Positions 16,639 to 56,947 of a DNA stretch of 64,000 nucleotides are shown piece after piece. The position numbers and the translations under genes were made by a program. Origin of the DNA: Escherichia coli. Lineage in GTDB: Bacteria > Pseudomonadota > Gammaproteobacteria > Enterobacterales > Enterobacteriaceae. Location of the stretch: the NCBI RefSeq assembly GCF_003018255.1, contig NZ_CP027440.1; one strand, written 5' to 3'. Each line of letters opens with the position of its first letter. The stretch's first letter is position 1. The notes below the pieces were generated by a model that did not search any database, had not been told where the DNA came from, and saw nothing but the letters and a program-made list of their open reading frames with translations.

Positions 16639-20703
<4,065 letters not shown>

Positions 20704-20717
20704 AACTCCCATCTGAT

Positions 20718-20749
20718 GCCCGGTAAGCATGTTGTTACCGGGCATTTTT
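20718..20749 (+). terminator. rho-independent terminator of glpACB
   Basis: GC-rich hairpin GCCCGGTAAGCATGTTGTTACCGGGC followed by ATTTTT. Confidence 0.6.
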
Positions 20750-20896
20750 GCGTCCACGATTCCGCGCTCAATGTATACGTTGCAACGCAGTGAAAATTCC
20801 TCTGAAAACGTCTCGCAAAGGCTGAAACTGGCAGATGTCAAAGGCCTGGGATAACCGTAATGTCGCGTTATCATAAATATCAGGTGACGGACAACC

Positions 20897-21856
20897 ATGA
20901 CCGAATCAACAACCTCCTCCCCGCATGATGCGGTATTTAAAACCTTTATGTTCTCGCCCGATACGGCGCGAGATTTTCTCGAAATACATCTGCCAGAGCC
21001 GCTGCGCAAGCTTTGCAACCTGCAAACCTTACGCCTGGAACCCACCAGCTTTATTGAAAAAAGTTTACGCGCTTACTACTAGGATGTTTTGTGGTCGGTG
21101 GAAACCAGCGACGGTGACGGCTATATCTACTGCGTGATTGAACATCAAAGTTCTGCAGAAAAGAATATGGCTTTTCGACTAATGCGCTATGCCACTGCCG
21201 CCATGCAACGTCACCTGGATAAAGGCTATGACAGAGTTCCGCTGGTGGTGCCATTGCTGTTTTATCATGGCGAAACCTCGCCCTACCCGTACTCACTCAA
21301 CTGGCTGGATGAGTTTGACGATCCGCAACTTGCCCGGCAGTTGTACACCGAAGCTTTTCCGTTGGTGGATATCACCATCGTACCTGACGATGAGATCATG
21401 CAACATCGGCGTATAGCTCTGCTGGAACTGATTCAAAAGCATATTCGCGACCGCGATTTAATCGGTATGGTCGACAGGATCACCACGCTTTTGGTTAGAG
21501 GCTTCACTAATGACAGCCAGCTACAAACGCTGTTTAATTATCTGCTGCAATGCGGCGATACCTCCCGTTTCACCCGCTTTATTCAGGAGATTGCCGAACG
21601 TTCACCACTACAAAAGGAGAGATTAATGACTATTGCTGAACGGCTACGGCAGGAAGGACATCAAATTGGCTGGCAGGAAGGTAAATTAGAAGGCTGGCAG
21701 GAGGGGAAATTGGAGGGTTTGCAGAAAGGCAAAGTAGAAGGTATGCATGAACAAGCCATTAAAATTGCCTTGCGCATGCTGGAACAGGGCTTTGAACGTG
21801 AGATTGTGCTGGCGACAACCCAACTCACTGATGCTGATATTCCGAACGGTCATTAA
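20897..21856 (+). pseudogene. yfaD: Rpn-family (PDDEXK nuclease-like, YhgA-like) protein gene interrupted by an in-frame TAG at 21080-21082
   Basis: Two same-frame ORFs (20897-21082 and 21089-21856) separated only by TAG. Translation across it reads ..[34 protein letters not shown].., a continuous Rpn N-terminal motif as I recall the family. The 255-aa downstream ORF in the track begins at a TTG. Confidence 0.55.
21626..21856 (+). CDS. candidate intragenic C-terminal small protein of the Rpn gene (76 aa, same frame)
   Basis: Internal ATG at 21626 preceded by AAGGAG with 6-nt spacing (..caAAAGGAGagattaATG..); encodes [39 protein letters not shown]...; the same SD+ATG block is duplicated at ypaA. 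Confidence 0.35.
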
Positions 21857-21868
21857 AAGGAGAGATTA

Positions 21869-22042
21869 ATGACTATTGCTGAACGGCTACGGCAGGAAGG
21901 ACATCAAATTGGCTGGCAGGAAGGCATGCATGAACAAGCCATTAAAATTGCTTTGCGCATGCTGGAGCAGGGCATTGATCGTGATCAGGTGCTCGCGGCC
22001 ACTCAGCTAAGCGAAGCCGATCTGGCAGCGAATAACCACTAA
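21869..22042 (+). CDS. ypaA: free-standing Rpn C-terminal-tail small protein (57 aa)
   Basis: ATG at 21869 with AAGGAG at 21857-21862; [57 protein letters not shown]. Its first ~70 nt are identical to 21611-21680 inside yfaD. Below the 60-aa ORF-track cutoff. Confidence 0.6.
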   Translation: MTIAERLRQEGHQIGWQEGMHEQAIKIALRMLEQGIDRDQVLAATQLSEADLAANNH

Positions 22043-22049
22043 TTAACAC

Positions 22050-22079
22050 AGGCCCACAGCCGATCCCCATGGGCCTTTG
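22050..22079. terminator. hairpin between convergent ypaA and rhmA (possible bidirectional terminator)
   Basis: AGGCCCA...TGGGCCT stem followed by TTTGA. Confidence 0.35.
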
Positions 22080-22082
22080 ATA

Positions 22083-22886
22083 TCAATAACTACCTTTTAC
22101 GCGTGGCCCATTTTTGCCTGATTTAAACATCGCCAGTCGTTGATCCAGGGCATCGCTGTAGAGCATCGTGTCAACGCCAACAGCGACAAAGTTCGCTCCC
22201 CACGCCAGGCATTGCTGCGCCATATCAGGAGCCACAGCCAGAAAACCAGCCGCTTTACCCGCAGCACGGATCCGCCGAATGCTGGTTTCAATAATTCGCT
22301 GCACTTCCGGGTGCCCGGCGTTATCCGGGTAGCCCAACGACGCAGAAAGATCCGCAGGTCCAATAAACACGCCATCAATCCCTTCAACATCGAGGATTTC
22401 GTCCAGGTTATCCAGTGCCGTTTTACTTTCCACCTGCACCAACAGACAAAGCGAATCGTTGACTTGCGCCATGTAATTCTCAATGCGTCCCCAGCGCGCA
22501 GCCCGTGCCACACTGGCCCCAACACCACGCTCACCGTAGGGAGGATAGCGCGTGGCAGACACCACCTGACGTGCCTGATCGGCAGTATCGACCATTGGGA
22601 TCAGTAGAGTTTGCGCGCCAATATCCAGGACTTGTTTAATCAGCGGCTTACTGCCTTCCACCGGACGGATCACGGGGTGGCTGGCATAGGGCGCTACCGC
22701 CTGTAGCTGGTGATAAAGATCCTGAATGGTGTTTGGCGCATGCTCCCCGTCAATCAGCAACCAGTCATAACCGGAAGTGGCGGCAATTTCTGCCATATAG
22801 GCAGTCGTTGAGCTTAACCACAGACCAATTTGCACTTCGCCCTTGCGTAAACGTTCTTTAAAGGGATTGGTTAATAATGCGTTCAT
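22083..22886 (-). CDS. rhmA: 2-keto-3-deoxy-L-rhamnonate aldolase (HpcH/HpaI family)
   Basis: 267-aa ORF starting [26 protein letters not shown]; class II aldolase fold motifs. Confidence 0.9.
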
Positions 22887-22902: not shown

Positions 22903-23990
22903 TTAATGATGTGCCACGTCGGTCTGCGCAACAGTGCGATTTACACGCAGAGTGAAAATAATCAGCGAACCGATGACCGCCACCGCTGCCAGCGTCAGTA
23001 ATCCCGCCGCATCGCTGGAAAATAACGTTTCTGCTTTCACGCGCAGGATCGGGGCAATAAACCCGCCCACTGCACCAAACAGGTTTATAAAACCAATCCC
23101 CGCAGCCAGCGCCGTACCGGAAAGAAGCTGTGTCGGCATCGTCCAGAACACTGGCTGTACGGCAATAAACCCGATGGCTGCAACACACAGCGCAACGATC
23201 GCCAGTAATGTCAGCGCCGCGACATTACGCCGCTCGCCGGTTTTATCGGAATAGCGCGGAATAAGCCAGGTCCCAAACAAGGCCGCGACCCACGGAATGG
23301 CGGTGACCACCGACGCCGTAAAGCCCACTTTTGTCCCCAACAATGCAGCAACCTGCGTCGGCAGGAAGAAAATTAATCCGTAAACCGCCACCTGAATGGT
23401 CAGGTAGATAATCGCCAGTTGCCAGACTCGGCCATTACGCAGCGCATCGCTCAATCGAGAAGTCACTTTCTGTTGTTCTTCACTTGCCAGTTGGTTGATA
23501 AGCAACGTTTTTTCTTCTTTACTCAGAAAACGTGCCTGCTCCGGCGTGTCATCAAGCCAAAAGAATGTGAATACCCCAGCGCCGACTGCCAGCAATCCTT
23601 CAATCACAAACATCCAGAACCAGCCGGGATGCCCCATAAATCCATGCATCTCCAGCAGCGCGCCGGAAAGCGGTGATCCCAGTGTTAACGCCAACGGTGC
23701 GCCCATATAGAACAGCCCCATAATGCTGGCGCGATTACGCTGCGGAAACCATTGCGAGGTGAGATAAATCATACCAGGGAAGAACCCGGCCTCCGCAGCA
23801 CCAAGCAGAGTACGAACGATCAGAAATTTCGCTTCAGTATCGGCCCATGCCATGGCTGCCGAAAGAAATCCCCACAGCAGTGTTGTCGTACCAATCCAGG
23901 TTCTTGCCCCCAGTTTGCGCATCAAAAGATTCGCCGGAACACCCAGAAACGCATATACCACAAAGAAAATGCCTGCTCCCAGACCAGCCC
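22903..23990 (-). pseudogene. rhmT: L-rhamnonate transporter (ACS-family MFS), N-terminally truncated
   Basis: ORF 22903-24039; the MFS sequence begins only at ..GLGAGIFFVVYAFLGVPANLLMRKLGAR (the TM2 region). About 50 N-terminal residues including TM1 are missing, and the 5' end of the ORF overlaps rhmR' in another frame. Confidence 0.55.
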
Positions 23991-24464
23991 TTCGATAATA
24001 CTTTGCTGTACAGCTGCAGGTTGCCAGGCAAGCAGGCATTTACCTATTCCGGAGCGATAAAGCGAAAGGCTTTTTCCTTCATGGGAACGCACGCTGATAG
24101 TGGCTGATGACTCCACTTTCAAAATGTAATAAGCGCTGCCGTTATCAATAATCCCCAGGTGACATAACAGCCCAGTGGTATCCATCAGTTGCGTCAAACG
24201 CGGTCGAGCCAGTTCCCGGAGATCCATCTTGCTTAACGCATGACCGGAAAGCTCCACCAGCCTGGTCCACAAACAAAAATTTTCCTGGTGATCAAGGCTA
24301 AGAAAACGCTGACGCCTGAGTTCATTAAGCAGCAAATAGGCCGTGCTTTTAGGGATCCCCAATGTGTCAATGATCGTCGCAGCACTACAGGGGCCAATGC
24401 GGGCAATCAAATTGAGAATATCAATAGCCCGTGTCAGGGCGGGAACTTTGCTTGATTCCAACAT
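23922..24464 (-). pseudogene. rhmR: IclR-family transcriptional regulator, C-terminally truncated (180 aa versus about 260 expected)
   Basis: N-terminal IclR HTH (ALTRAIDILNLIARIGPCSAATIIDTLGIPKSTAYLLLNEL); the effector domain ends prematurely in ..WYMRFWVFRRIF*; overlaps the rhmT' ORF by about 118 nt. Confidence 0.55.
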
Positions 24465-24683
24465 ACTGGACTCCAGTCTTAGATACTGGAATCAGTCTCG
24501 TTGCTCAGGGGGAGTAAAATTGTGAAGCTCATCAAATCCCGCTCCTCGTCCAGCGGACTGGAGAAATTACGCACAAATTTGTGAATTAGCGCACGGATTT
24601 TTTCTTATTGAGTACAACAGGTTGGACAAATTTTGCCGGAGGGGGAATGTGCCGGTGCAGTAAACCGGCACAGAGTGGCGGAA

Positions 24684-25886
24684 TCAGACAGATAAGGTCA
24701 TGGACTCAACAACCTCAATCCAGCCATGCTCACTGGCGATGTCCTGGCCGTTTAACCAACGGCGCAGCATATTCAGTGCCATCATTGCGCACACTTCCTG
24801 ACGGATAGCCAGGCTGTAGCGTGTAGTGCTGAAACGCACACGCAGAGCGAAAGTGCCATCTGGCGTGGATAGCGCAAAGTTGAGATGCTCGTTCTCGAAA
24901 CCCGAAACAGCCAGTGCCAGCCCGGCAAAATGGTTGGCCCGCCGTTCTGTAATCCAGTGCGCAGTTTGCGCCAGGGTTTCTTCCTGTGAAGGAACCACTT
25001 CACACGCCAGCAATGGAGCACCTGCGCGAGAAAGTTGCAAAGCCAATAAACCGCCGGTGAATTGCTCGCTCAACGTCAGGCTGAACTGGCGGTTTTGCAA
25101 TTCGCGACTGATCTGCGCGGGCAGTCCTTCGGTGCCTTCGAAAATCACGCTCTGTCCGGCAACACGTTTAACGTCCAGCCACAGTTTTTCCATCGCCTGT
25201 TGCTCGCTTGCCGGTCCGGTGAGTTTCAGTTCGATGATAGGCATTGAGGAGCGATAACCCATTGTTACGCCCGGCGGCAGTTGTAGAGTGTCCAGGCTTT
25301 GTGCCAGATCGCTTTCCGAACGACCAAAGGTAGTTAAACGCAGACAAACCGGCGGCTGTGGTAAAGAAAAACGCTCGCGCAGGCGCGGCAGGATTTCGTG
25401 CTCGACCATCACCTTAAATTCTGACGGTACGCCGGGGGTAAAGAACATCAGGCAACGATTAAGCTGCACGGCAAAACCACAGGCGGTGCCTACCGGGTTA
25501 TTGATAAATTCAGCACTGGCAGGTAGCTCCGCTTGTTTACGGTTGCTCGGTGCCATTACTCGTCCACGTTCGTGGAAATAGCGTTCCATCTCTTTGAGCC
25601 AGGCTTCATGCAGCACCAGGCCTTCACCTTTTGCTGTCGCAGCGGCGAGTGCGCTTAAATCATCACTGGTCGGCCCCAGCCCGCCGTTAACGATCAGCAC
25701 ATCGGTGTGCTGACTCCGTTCGCGAAGAATGGTGACTAAGTCATCAAGGTTATCCCCCACCGTATTGCGGCGAGATAATGGCAACCCCTGATGAAAGAAA
25801 AAATCGGCCAGCCAGGCAGCGTTAGTGTCAACGATTTGCCCGTGTAACACTTCATCCCCGGTGGATAACATTTCCACTTTTAACAT
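24684..25886 (-). CDS. yfaY: CinA-like protein (MoCF-binding domain plus CinA C-terminal domain)
   Basis: 400-aa ORF starting MLKVEMLSTGDEVLHGQIVDTNAAWLADFF. Confidence 0.85.
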   Translation of the reverse strand: MLKVEMLSTGDEVLHGQIVDTNAAWLADFFFHQGLPLSRRNTVGDNLDDLVTILRERSQHTDVLIVNGGLGPTSDDLSALAAATAKGEGLVLHEAWLKEMERYFHERGRVMAPSNRKQAELPASAEFINNPVGTACGFAVQLNRCLMFFTPGVPSEFKVMVEHEILPRLRERFSLPQPPVCLRLTTFGRSESDLAQSLDTLQLPPGVTMGYRSSMPIIELKLTGPASEQQAMEKLWLDVKRVAGQSVIFEGTEGLPAQISRELQNRQFSLTLSEQFTGGLLALQLSRAGAPLLACEVVPSQEETLAQTAHWITERRANHFAGLALAVSGFENEHLNFALSTPDGTFALRVRFSTTRYSLAIRQEVCAMMALNMLRRWLNGQDIASEHGWIEVVESMTLSV

Positions 25887-56895: not shown

Positions 56896-56947
56896 TAGCA
56901 TGCTTCCAGTTTTCTCAGTCAGAGACTGAGCGTTAATCGAAATTCGG

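Follow-up and report, generated by a model that had tools for sequence, protein, structure and literature searches.

The 64,000-nucleotide stretch of Escherichia coli DNA analysed here (the window) very probably carries an rpnE–ypaA module in which the tail of rpnE was duplicated and the long gene was recently knocked out by a C>A amber mutation, leaving a remnant composed of antitoxin-like genes only. According to this explanation, an Rpn-family nuclease gene would have had its C-terminal protein, RpnE_S, translated separately from an internal Shine–Dalgarno sequence and ATG, and tandem duplication of this tail cassette would have produced the free-standing gene ypaA (rpnE_Ss). A recent C>A transversion would then have converted Ser62 (TCG) to amber, one codon before Asp63, so that a full-length nuclease would be precluded; neither D11 nor D63 would be present in products of re-initiation at TTG 21089 or GTG 21098, and RpnE_S and YpaA would still be expressed in the window strain as an antitoxin-only remnant. 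We are confident that the description that fits the locus best is an Rpn locus of the toxin/intragenic-antitoxin type at the first step of decay. All features of rpnE and ypaA described below lie on the forward strand, and one hairpin is unstranded.

The window covers the E. coli chromosomal region gyrA–nrdAB–glpTQ/glpABC–rpnE–ypaA–yfaU...arn–men–nuo. The neighbours of rpnE are glpC and yfaU, matching the K-12 order, and rpnE–ypaA has a nucleotide identity of about 96% to the K-12 locus. Between the convergent genes ypaA and yfaU is a GC-rich hairpin (22050–22076; 10-bp stem with 6 GC pairs) that is likely to be a bidirectional terminator. The locus is the already described E. coli rpnE–ypaA system, the published biology of which includes nested genes, antitoxins encoded inside the toxin gene and a hypervariable repeat that determines specificity. 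The window strain is an ordinary natural knockout of this known system, and a loss-of-function allele is all that it adds. In the neighbouring rhm cluster, which is degraded, the open reading frame (ORF) of yfaV has only 378 amino acids and, compared with K-12, lacks 48 nt; similarity to K-12 ends after 23982, where yfaY follows directly; rhmD and most of rhmR are therefore missing.

Rpn proteins are toxic nucleases, and the RpnS small proteins, whose translation begins inside the same gene, bind to and block the long forms (Zhong 2023, PMC10400941). The same study demonstrated this block for RpnA, RpnB and RpnC only, and reported that an RpnS protein acts only on its own RpnL. This biology had been stated correctly in an earlier note on this DNA, and the published work extends to ypaA itself, which is explicitly identified as the second, free-standing copy of RpnE_S and renamed rpnE_Ss (Zhong 2023). 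An antitoxin role for RpnE_S and YpaA would be an extrapolation from RpnA, RpnB and RpnC. Similarly, 'toxin' is an unproven label for RpnE; when overexpressed, K-12 RpnE was negative for toxicity, SOS induction and stimulation of recombination (Kingston 2017, PMC5350276).

The long form, RpnE_L, is encoded by rpnE (yfaD; 20897–21856), which starts with the ATG at 20897 and is interrupted by an amber codon at position 62. Past this codon the frame is open to the TAA at 21854–21856, giving 319 codons when codon 62 is counted as Ser. After repair of codon 62, the protein matches the Pfam family PF04754 (Transposase_31, YhgA-like) over residues 8–209 (E = 1e-87), the NCBIfam RpnE equivalog NF007418 with 707.6 bits (cutoff of 583) and the Rpn family model TIGR01784 with 172.7 bits (cutoff of 52.1). 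The residues defined as functional in RpnA (D11, D63, E82, Q84, R94 and the PDDEI motif; Kingston 2017) are all conserved in the conceptual translation of RpnE, with identical numbering and with D165 in PDDEI. Judged by these matches, rpnE is here a pseudogene member of the Rpn/YhgA-like PD-(D/E)XK nuclease family. A phmmer search of full-length RpnE against the Protein Data Bank (PDB) returned nothing relevant, and PADLOC 2.0, which has no Rpn model, gave only a weak match of the tail to PDLC01084 ('putative invertase'). Annotation pipelines call rpnE an 'ISNCY family transposase'. In PGAP annotation, ypaA is usually a pseudogene fragment, although it is a validated small protein.

Within the 3′ end of rpnE lies rpnE_S, the gene of the putative intragenic antitoxin (21626–21856). 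Its ATG is 729 nt from the start of rpnE (21626 − 20897) and is therefore in frame, at codon 244 (M244), giving the 76-amino-acid product that the earlier note had read from this position. The internal Shine–Dalgarno sequence, AAGGAG (21614–21619), is formed by codons K240–E241 of rpnE and is 6 nt before the ATG. In RpnA, the K240R/E241D/M244L mutant abolishes RpnA_S (Zhong 2023); because the ribosome-binding site and start of RpnE_S occupy the same codons, the sites are positionally homologous. The pattern AAGGAG-N5-8-ATG occurs 7 times in the window, compared with 1.6 expected from shuffles. Both tails match the C-terminal end of NF007418 (E = 2e-30 and 7e-29), and PF27070 (HTH_Rpn_C) is listed in the precomputed Pfam record for the 57-amino-acid and 252-amino-acid products that contain a tail.

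Initiation at both small-gene starts, which the earlier note had proposed to check by ribosome profiling, has already been recorded in published K-12 data. Ribo-RET peaks occur at in-frame internal starts in five of five rpn genes (Meydan 2019, bioRxiv 10.1101/520783), Onc112 and retapamulin peaks occur at the RpnE_S and YpaA starts, and both proteins were detected in K-12 by SPA tagging and immunoblots (Zhong 2023). Zhong 2023 also reported a transcription start site inside every rpn gene and found that the small proteins outnumber the long ones in K-12. A simple sigma-70 scan of positions 20650–22150 found no consensus-like promoter, so the assignment of an internal promoter draws on published K-12 dRNA-seq. 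The K-12 internal promoter lies within the 369 nt upstream of the internal start, in which the window strain differs from K-12 at only 6 positions (approximately 98% identity). Given the retained consensus ribosome-binding sites and these approximately 370 nt of 98% K-12-identical upstream sequence, we infer that RpnE_S and YpaA continue to be expressed in the window strain. Nucleotide diversity in rpnE drops markedly across the 300 nt before the internal start, in agreement with the synonymous-site conservation reported by Meydan 2019.

The second copy of the tail is the free-standing gene ypaA (21869–22042), which encodes 57 amino acids with zero extra 4-amino-acid units. Its Shine–Dalgarno sequence, AAGGAG (21857–21862), begins one base past the rpnE stop codon, and the sequence AAGGAGAGATTAATG recurs at 21857–21871, where it opens ypaA. 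The two copies of the cassette match at every base over about 65 nt, starting ahead of the Shine–Dalgarno sequence (AAAAGGAG...) and continuing to GGCTGGCAG; they then diverge by a 60-nt block, after which they realign. A likeness of this length is not due to chance, and it bears out the earlier description of a repeated Shine–Dalgarno–ATG–tail cassette; Meydan 2019 had already described the C-terminal product of RpnE as almost identical to YpaA. The tandem-duplication junction and leader (21837–21868), ATTCCGAACGGTCATTAAAAGGAG, is a copy of ATTGCCGAACGTTCACCACTACAAAAGGAG (21588–21619) with 1-nt and 5-nt deletions. This frameshifted copy supplies the last residues of rpnE (IPNGH; DIPNGH*) and its TAA stop.

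The tandem arrangement is common. Using a 65-nt probe across the junction of the rpnE stop and the ypaA Shine–Dalgarno sequence (at least 80% coverage), we called tandem rpnE–ypaA in 2,307 of 5,426 complete E. coli genomes (43%); the remaining genomes match only the Shine–Dalgarno/ATG half of the probe, a sign of a single tail. In the single-tail genomes examined (BL21, O157:H7 and O104:H4), this tail has the YpaA-type end ...SEADLAANNH. Free-standing rpnSs genes have been reported to be born by duplication and lost through deletion or fusion (Zhong 2023). The coincidence of three features that had drawn attention to this locus is thus real in that all three are present, although the internal ORF and ypaA are standard equipment and only the TAG is special. 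Two assemblies with the TAG (L005 and L009) have a single tail; we rejected these as cases of ypaA loss after the TAG, because both were built from short reads, and the duplicated tails are likely to have been collapsed artefactually. Breaks within rpnE and at the tail duplication are frequent in short-read assemblies.

YpaA matches the crystallized RpnA_S chain (7th0_A) over residues 1–55, its whole length, with E = 4e-5. For YpaA, AF2 run on the single sequence predicts three helices with a mean pLDDT of 76.6, and a Foldseek search of the PDB with this model found nothing below E = 2 (best E = 2.0). The link between YpaA and RpnA_S comes from the sequence match.

The block in which the two tails differ is a hypervariable tract of five 12-nt (4-amino-acid) units (21683–21742) that has no counterpart in ypaA here, leaving a 60-nt gap; TRF reports a period of 24 over 21668–21751. 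The units begin at residue 20 of RpnE_S, and in RpnS proteins such repeats start 8–20 residues past the initiating Met (Zhong 2023). Across 22 genomes, unit number ranges from 0 to 8 in RpnE and from 0 to 6 in YpaA, always in multiples of 12 nt. The 22 tandem loci sampled comprise 10 distinct RpnE/YpaA unit combinations, and the two numbers are never equal (5 versus 0 in the window strain). We do not attach significance to this mismatch, because the marginals and the 10 combinations give approximately 0.6 equal pairs expected, so that zero is a descriptive observation. The strain-variable four-amino-acid repeats set specificity, and RpnC_S with one additional repeat fails to block RpnC_L (Zhong 2023). 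With zero units in YpaA and five in RpnE, the RpnC result suggests by analogy that YpaA would be non-cognate toward the adjacent RpnE_L, and so would not inhibit its neighbour even if the long form were intact.

An alternative reading takes YpaA to be a deliberately non-cognate tail cassette, acting either as a recombination donor that exchanges the specificity-determining tail of RpnE or as a modulator through mixed dimers with RpnE_S, and takes the codon-62 amber to be a selected shedding of the nuclease. Unit numbers are mismatched in every tandem genome sampled and the examined single-tail genomes carry the YpaA-type end, both of which fit such a cassette; nevertheless, we consider this reading unlikely. 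If it were true, YpaA would not be a redundant back-up antitoxin, and the small proteins would be kept for a function of their own.

The premature TAG occupies codon 62 (21080–21082), as the earlier note had stated, and lies directly 5′ of the codon for the catalytic Asp63. Upstream of it remains an N-terminal ORF of 61 codons (20897–21079) that keeps D11 and is without D63, E82, Q84, R94 and PDDEI. The nearest complete genome, that of strain 104 (NZ_CP029164), differs from the window across rpnE–ypaA only at 21081, where it has C and the window has A; this establishes that the TAG is derived from TCG, as had been proposed. Comparison across E. coli genomes, the check that the earlier note had suggested for both the TAG and the ypaA copy, shows that both vary, to very different degrees. 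In contrast to the common tandem form, a 61-nt probe centred on the TAG has an exact match in only 1 of 5,403 complete genomes, that of SC418, and the others are one mismatch off, so that the frequency of the allele is approximately 0.02% of complete genomes. In the SC418 genome the same TAG is labelled 'internal stop' by PGAP.

Three observations would fit an amber codon that is an error of sequencing or assembly in a gene that is really intact: rpnE–ypaA differs by one base from its closest complete counterpart, the allele is almost absent from complete genomes, and paralogues of rpnE cause assembly breaks nearby. Exact copies of the 61-amino-acid product occur in public assemblies on two N-terminal haplotypes. 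Some of the contigs that encode a '61-aa protein' (72 and 22) are contig-end artefacts. With these discarded, a true TAG followed by the downstream ORF is present on the window haplotype in assemblies L004–L007, L009 and L010, and on the SC418 haplotype in three further assemblies (L011–L013). Because several assemblies made independently from separate samples, one of them a 945-kb metagenome scaffold, carry this allele on the same haplotype, and because it is also annotated in the complete SC418 genome, the TAG is not a sequencing error, and an artefact is extremely improbable as an explanation. Short N-terminal RpnE products were rejected as a tally of independent truncations, because most are contig-end partials that result from assembly breaks at sequences conserved among the paralogues.

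Both haplotypes have near-identical relatives with TCG. Over 728 nt, nothing else distinguishes the window haplotype from the TCG-bearing strain 104. For the SC418 haplotype, five complete genomes with TCG match at 99.7%, which corresponds to 2 mismatches in 730 nt, including the base in codon 62. The two haplotypes themselves differ at 21 of 728 sites, with the nearest flanking single-nucleotide polymorphisms (SNPs) at 21049 and 21154. On this sequence evidence, the TAG allele is real, heritable, rare and young, and it probably arose twice, although a single origin followed by gene conversion over a tract of at most 104 nt between SNPs 21049 and 21154 may account for the same pattern.

A repeated origin raises the question of whether the codon-62 TAG was selected, such that lineages shed the RpnE nuclease and keep RpnE_S and YpaA for a function of their own, for example immunity to incoming Rpn toxins, regulation or acting as a phage decoy. 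The identical nonsense change on two haplotypes that are 21/728 sites apart, each with TCG relatives 0–1 SNP away, would fit such selection, as would the position of the stop immediately before the essential D63, the intact small ORFs in both TAG lineages and the excess of small over long proteins in K-12. However, there are only two events, both very young, in which intact tails are expected without selection; the allele is found in approximately 0.02% of complete genomes, and a short conversion tract could reduce the two events to one. Overexpressed K-12 RpnE is non-toxic, so selection may have had nothing to act on, and RpnS proteins act on their own RpnL only. We consider selection of the TAG to be quite improbable. 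Strain 104, in which the long ORF is intact, has exactly the same two tails as the window, so the persistence of antitoxin-like ORFs says nothing about selection. The earlier proposal of an inactivated large ORF with a persisting antitoxin-like copy therefore stands in its description, as the long ORF is broken and both small ORFs are intact, but persistence cannot be taken as evidence that the copy was selectively kept.

The effect of the TAG on the nuclease can be predicted from RpnA. The stop breaks the reading frame of the single polypeptide and parts D11 from D63, E82 and Q84. In RpnA, all phenotypes are lost with either D11A or D63A, and the in vitro nuclease activity of D63A is below 0.006 of the wild-type level (Kingston 2017). 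Because both residues are needed, no active nuclease is expected from the 61-amino-acid fragment or from restart products, and the nuclease function of RpnE has presumably been lost in the window strain. A truncated or split system could still be functional if translation restarted at TTG 21089 or GTG 21098, giving a protein of 252–255 amino acids alongside the 61-amino-acid fragment, or if the stop were partially read through. In-frame TTG and GTG codons do occur 6 and 15 nt past the stop, an AGGA overlaps the stop codon and gene callers predict a 252-amino-acid ORF there. Nevertheless, restart products would lack D11 and D63, the Rpn family offers no precedent for a PD-(D/E)XK core put together from two chains, and the window offers no evidence of a suppressor tRNA. 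A functional split system is accordingly very improbable, and a simple knockout remains the preferred reading. Because K-12 RpnE was non-toxic in published assays, this knockout may be neutral or phenotypically silent.

The window strain and the second independent lineage are of modest value as natural material that is RpnE_L-minus and retains RpnE_S and YpaA. They would make it possible to examine whether RpnE_S and YpaA have an activity of their own and whether RpnE has a role in phage defence.

The closest known system is the K-12 locus itself, in which rpnE, RpnE_S and ypaA have the same location between glpC and yfaU, the same Shine–Dalgarno/ATG cassette at codon 244 and a free-standing downstream copy. 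The two strains differ at codon 62, which is TCG in K-12 and TAG in the window strain, and in the repeat tract, with 0 units in RpnE and 1 in YpaA in K-12 compared with 5 and 0, respectively, in the window strain. Among characterized paralogues, RpnA_L/RpnA_S (7TH0) is similar over most of the protein: the RpnA model matches RpnE residues 1–256 (E = 1e-124), and the catalytic residues and the codon of the internal start are common to both. The difference is functional, in that toxicity, nuclease activity and inhibition by RpnA_S have been demonstrated for RpnA, whereas RpnE was inactive in the same assays. A parallel for ypaA is provided by rpnC and the downstream rpnC_Ss of some E. coli strains, in which an independent tandem duplication of the tail cassette also produced a free-standing small gene with variable 4-amino-acid repeats; rpnC is nonetheless a different paralogue at a different locus, and the loss of inhibition by a one-repeat mismatch is an experimental result for RpnC. 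Finally, the locus resembles degenerate toxin–antitoxin loci with orphan antitoxins, in which a disrupted toxin frame likewise accompanies intact antitoxin frames. Unlike in those loci, the antitoxin of rpnE is encoded within the toxin gene, with an internal promoter and ribosome-binding site, and the disruption of rpnE is too recent for selective retention to be inferred.

The codon-62 change in rpnE, from TCG to TAG, occurs identically in a second Escherichia coli lineage, that of strain SC418 (locus L003; NZ_LR778147.1, 2347–3318), to which three further TAG-bearing loci (L011–L013) belong. Haplotypes of this lineage and of the window differ at 21 of 728 sites, and their numbers of 4-aa repeat units also differ, with six in RpnE and four in YpaA in the SC418 lineage compared with five and none in the window. 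The stop codon in the SC418 lineage is probably the same nonsense mutation recurring independently.

We compared repeat numbers across tandem rpnE–ypaA loci, namely the window (21683–21742 versus 21869–22042) and loci L001–L003 and L024–L041. The RpnE and YpaA counts were unequal in all 22, in 10 distinct combinations, a sample too small to tell unequal counts from random pairing. Such inequality nevertheless predicts that YpaA is non-cognate for the neighbouring RpnE. Among 15 distinct rpnE haplotypes, each 60 nt of the gene's 5′ half holds 5–10 variable sites, a density that drops to 0–3 over the ~300 nt upstream of the internal start of rpnE_S, the in-frame tail ORF. The low diversity of this stretch (21257–21625) fits embedded promoter or ribosome-binding signals for rpnE_S, and is also consistent with homogenization of the stretch.

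The rhamnonate (rhm) cluster adjoining ypaA (22903–25886, minus strand) shows degradation. Its yfaV/rhmT reading frame encodes no more than 378 aa, with a 48-nt in-frame deletion near 23204 relative to K-12, and similarity to K-12 does not extend past 23982. The next gene is yfaY (24684–25886, minus strand), and rhmD and most of rhmR are therefore missing; strain 104, the closest complete genome, has an IclR-family pseudogene at the matching place. Elsewhere, a nuoG RNA motif (Rfam RF01748; 50.3 bits) lies between nuoG and nuoF (56903–56945, minus strand) and is ordinary for this region.

Contigs from short-read and metagenome assemblies frequently end within rpnE (L006–L008, L010 and L014–L020), either around codons 53–85, where the sequence is conserved among rpn paralogues, or at nucleotide 745, in the duplicated tail leader. 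These ends give rise to artefactual partial proteins in databases, and some apparent '61-aa' entries are among them. Annotations of ypaA were compared between window 21857–22042 and its counterparts in L001, L002, L003 and L024–L041. In most genomes NCBI PGAP treats ypaA as a pseudogene that begins directly after the rpnE stop codon, described as 'hypothetical protein; incomplete; missing N-terminus', and in a few (E15 and Evo1) it is called as a regular CDS. For rpnE the annotation reads 'ISNCY family transposase'. The two annotations, the ypaA pseudogene and the rpnE transposase, disagree with the experimental literature.
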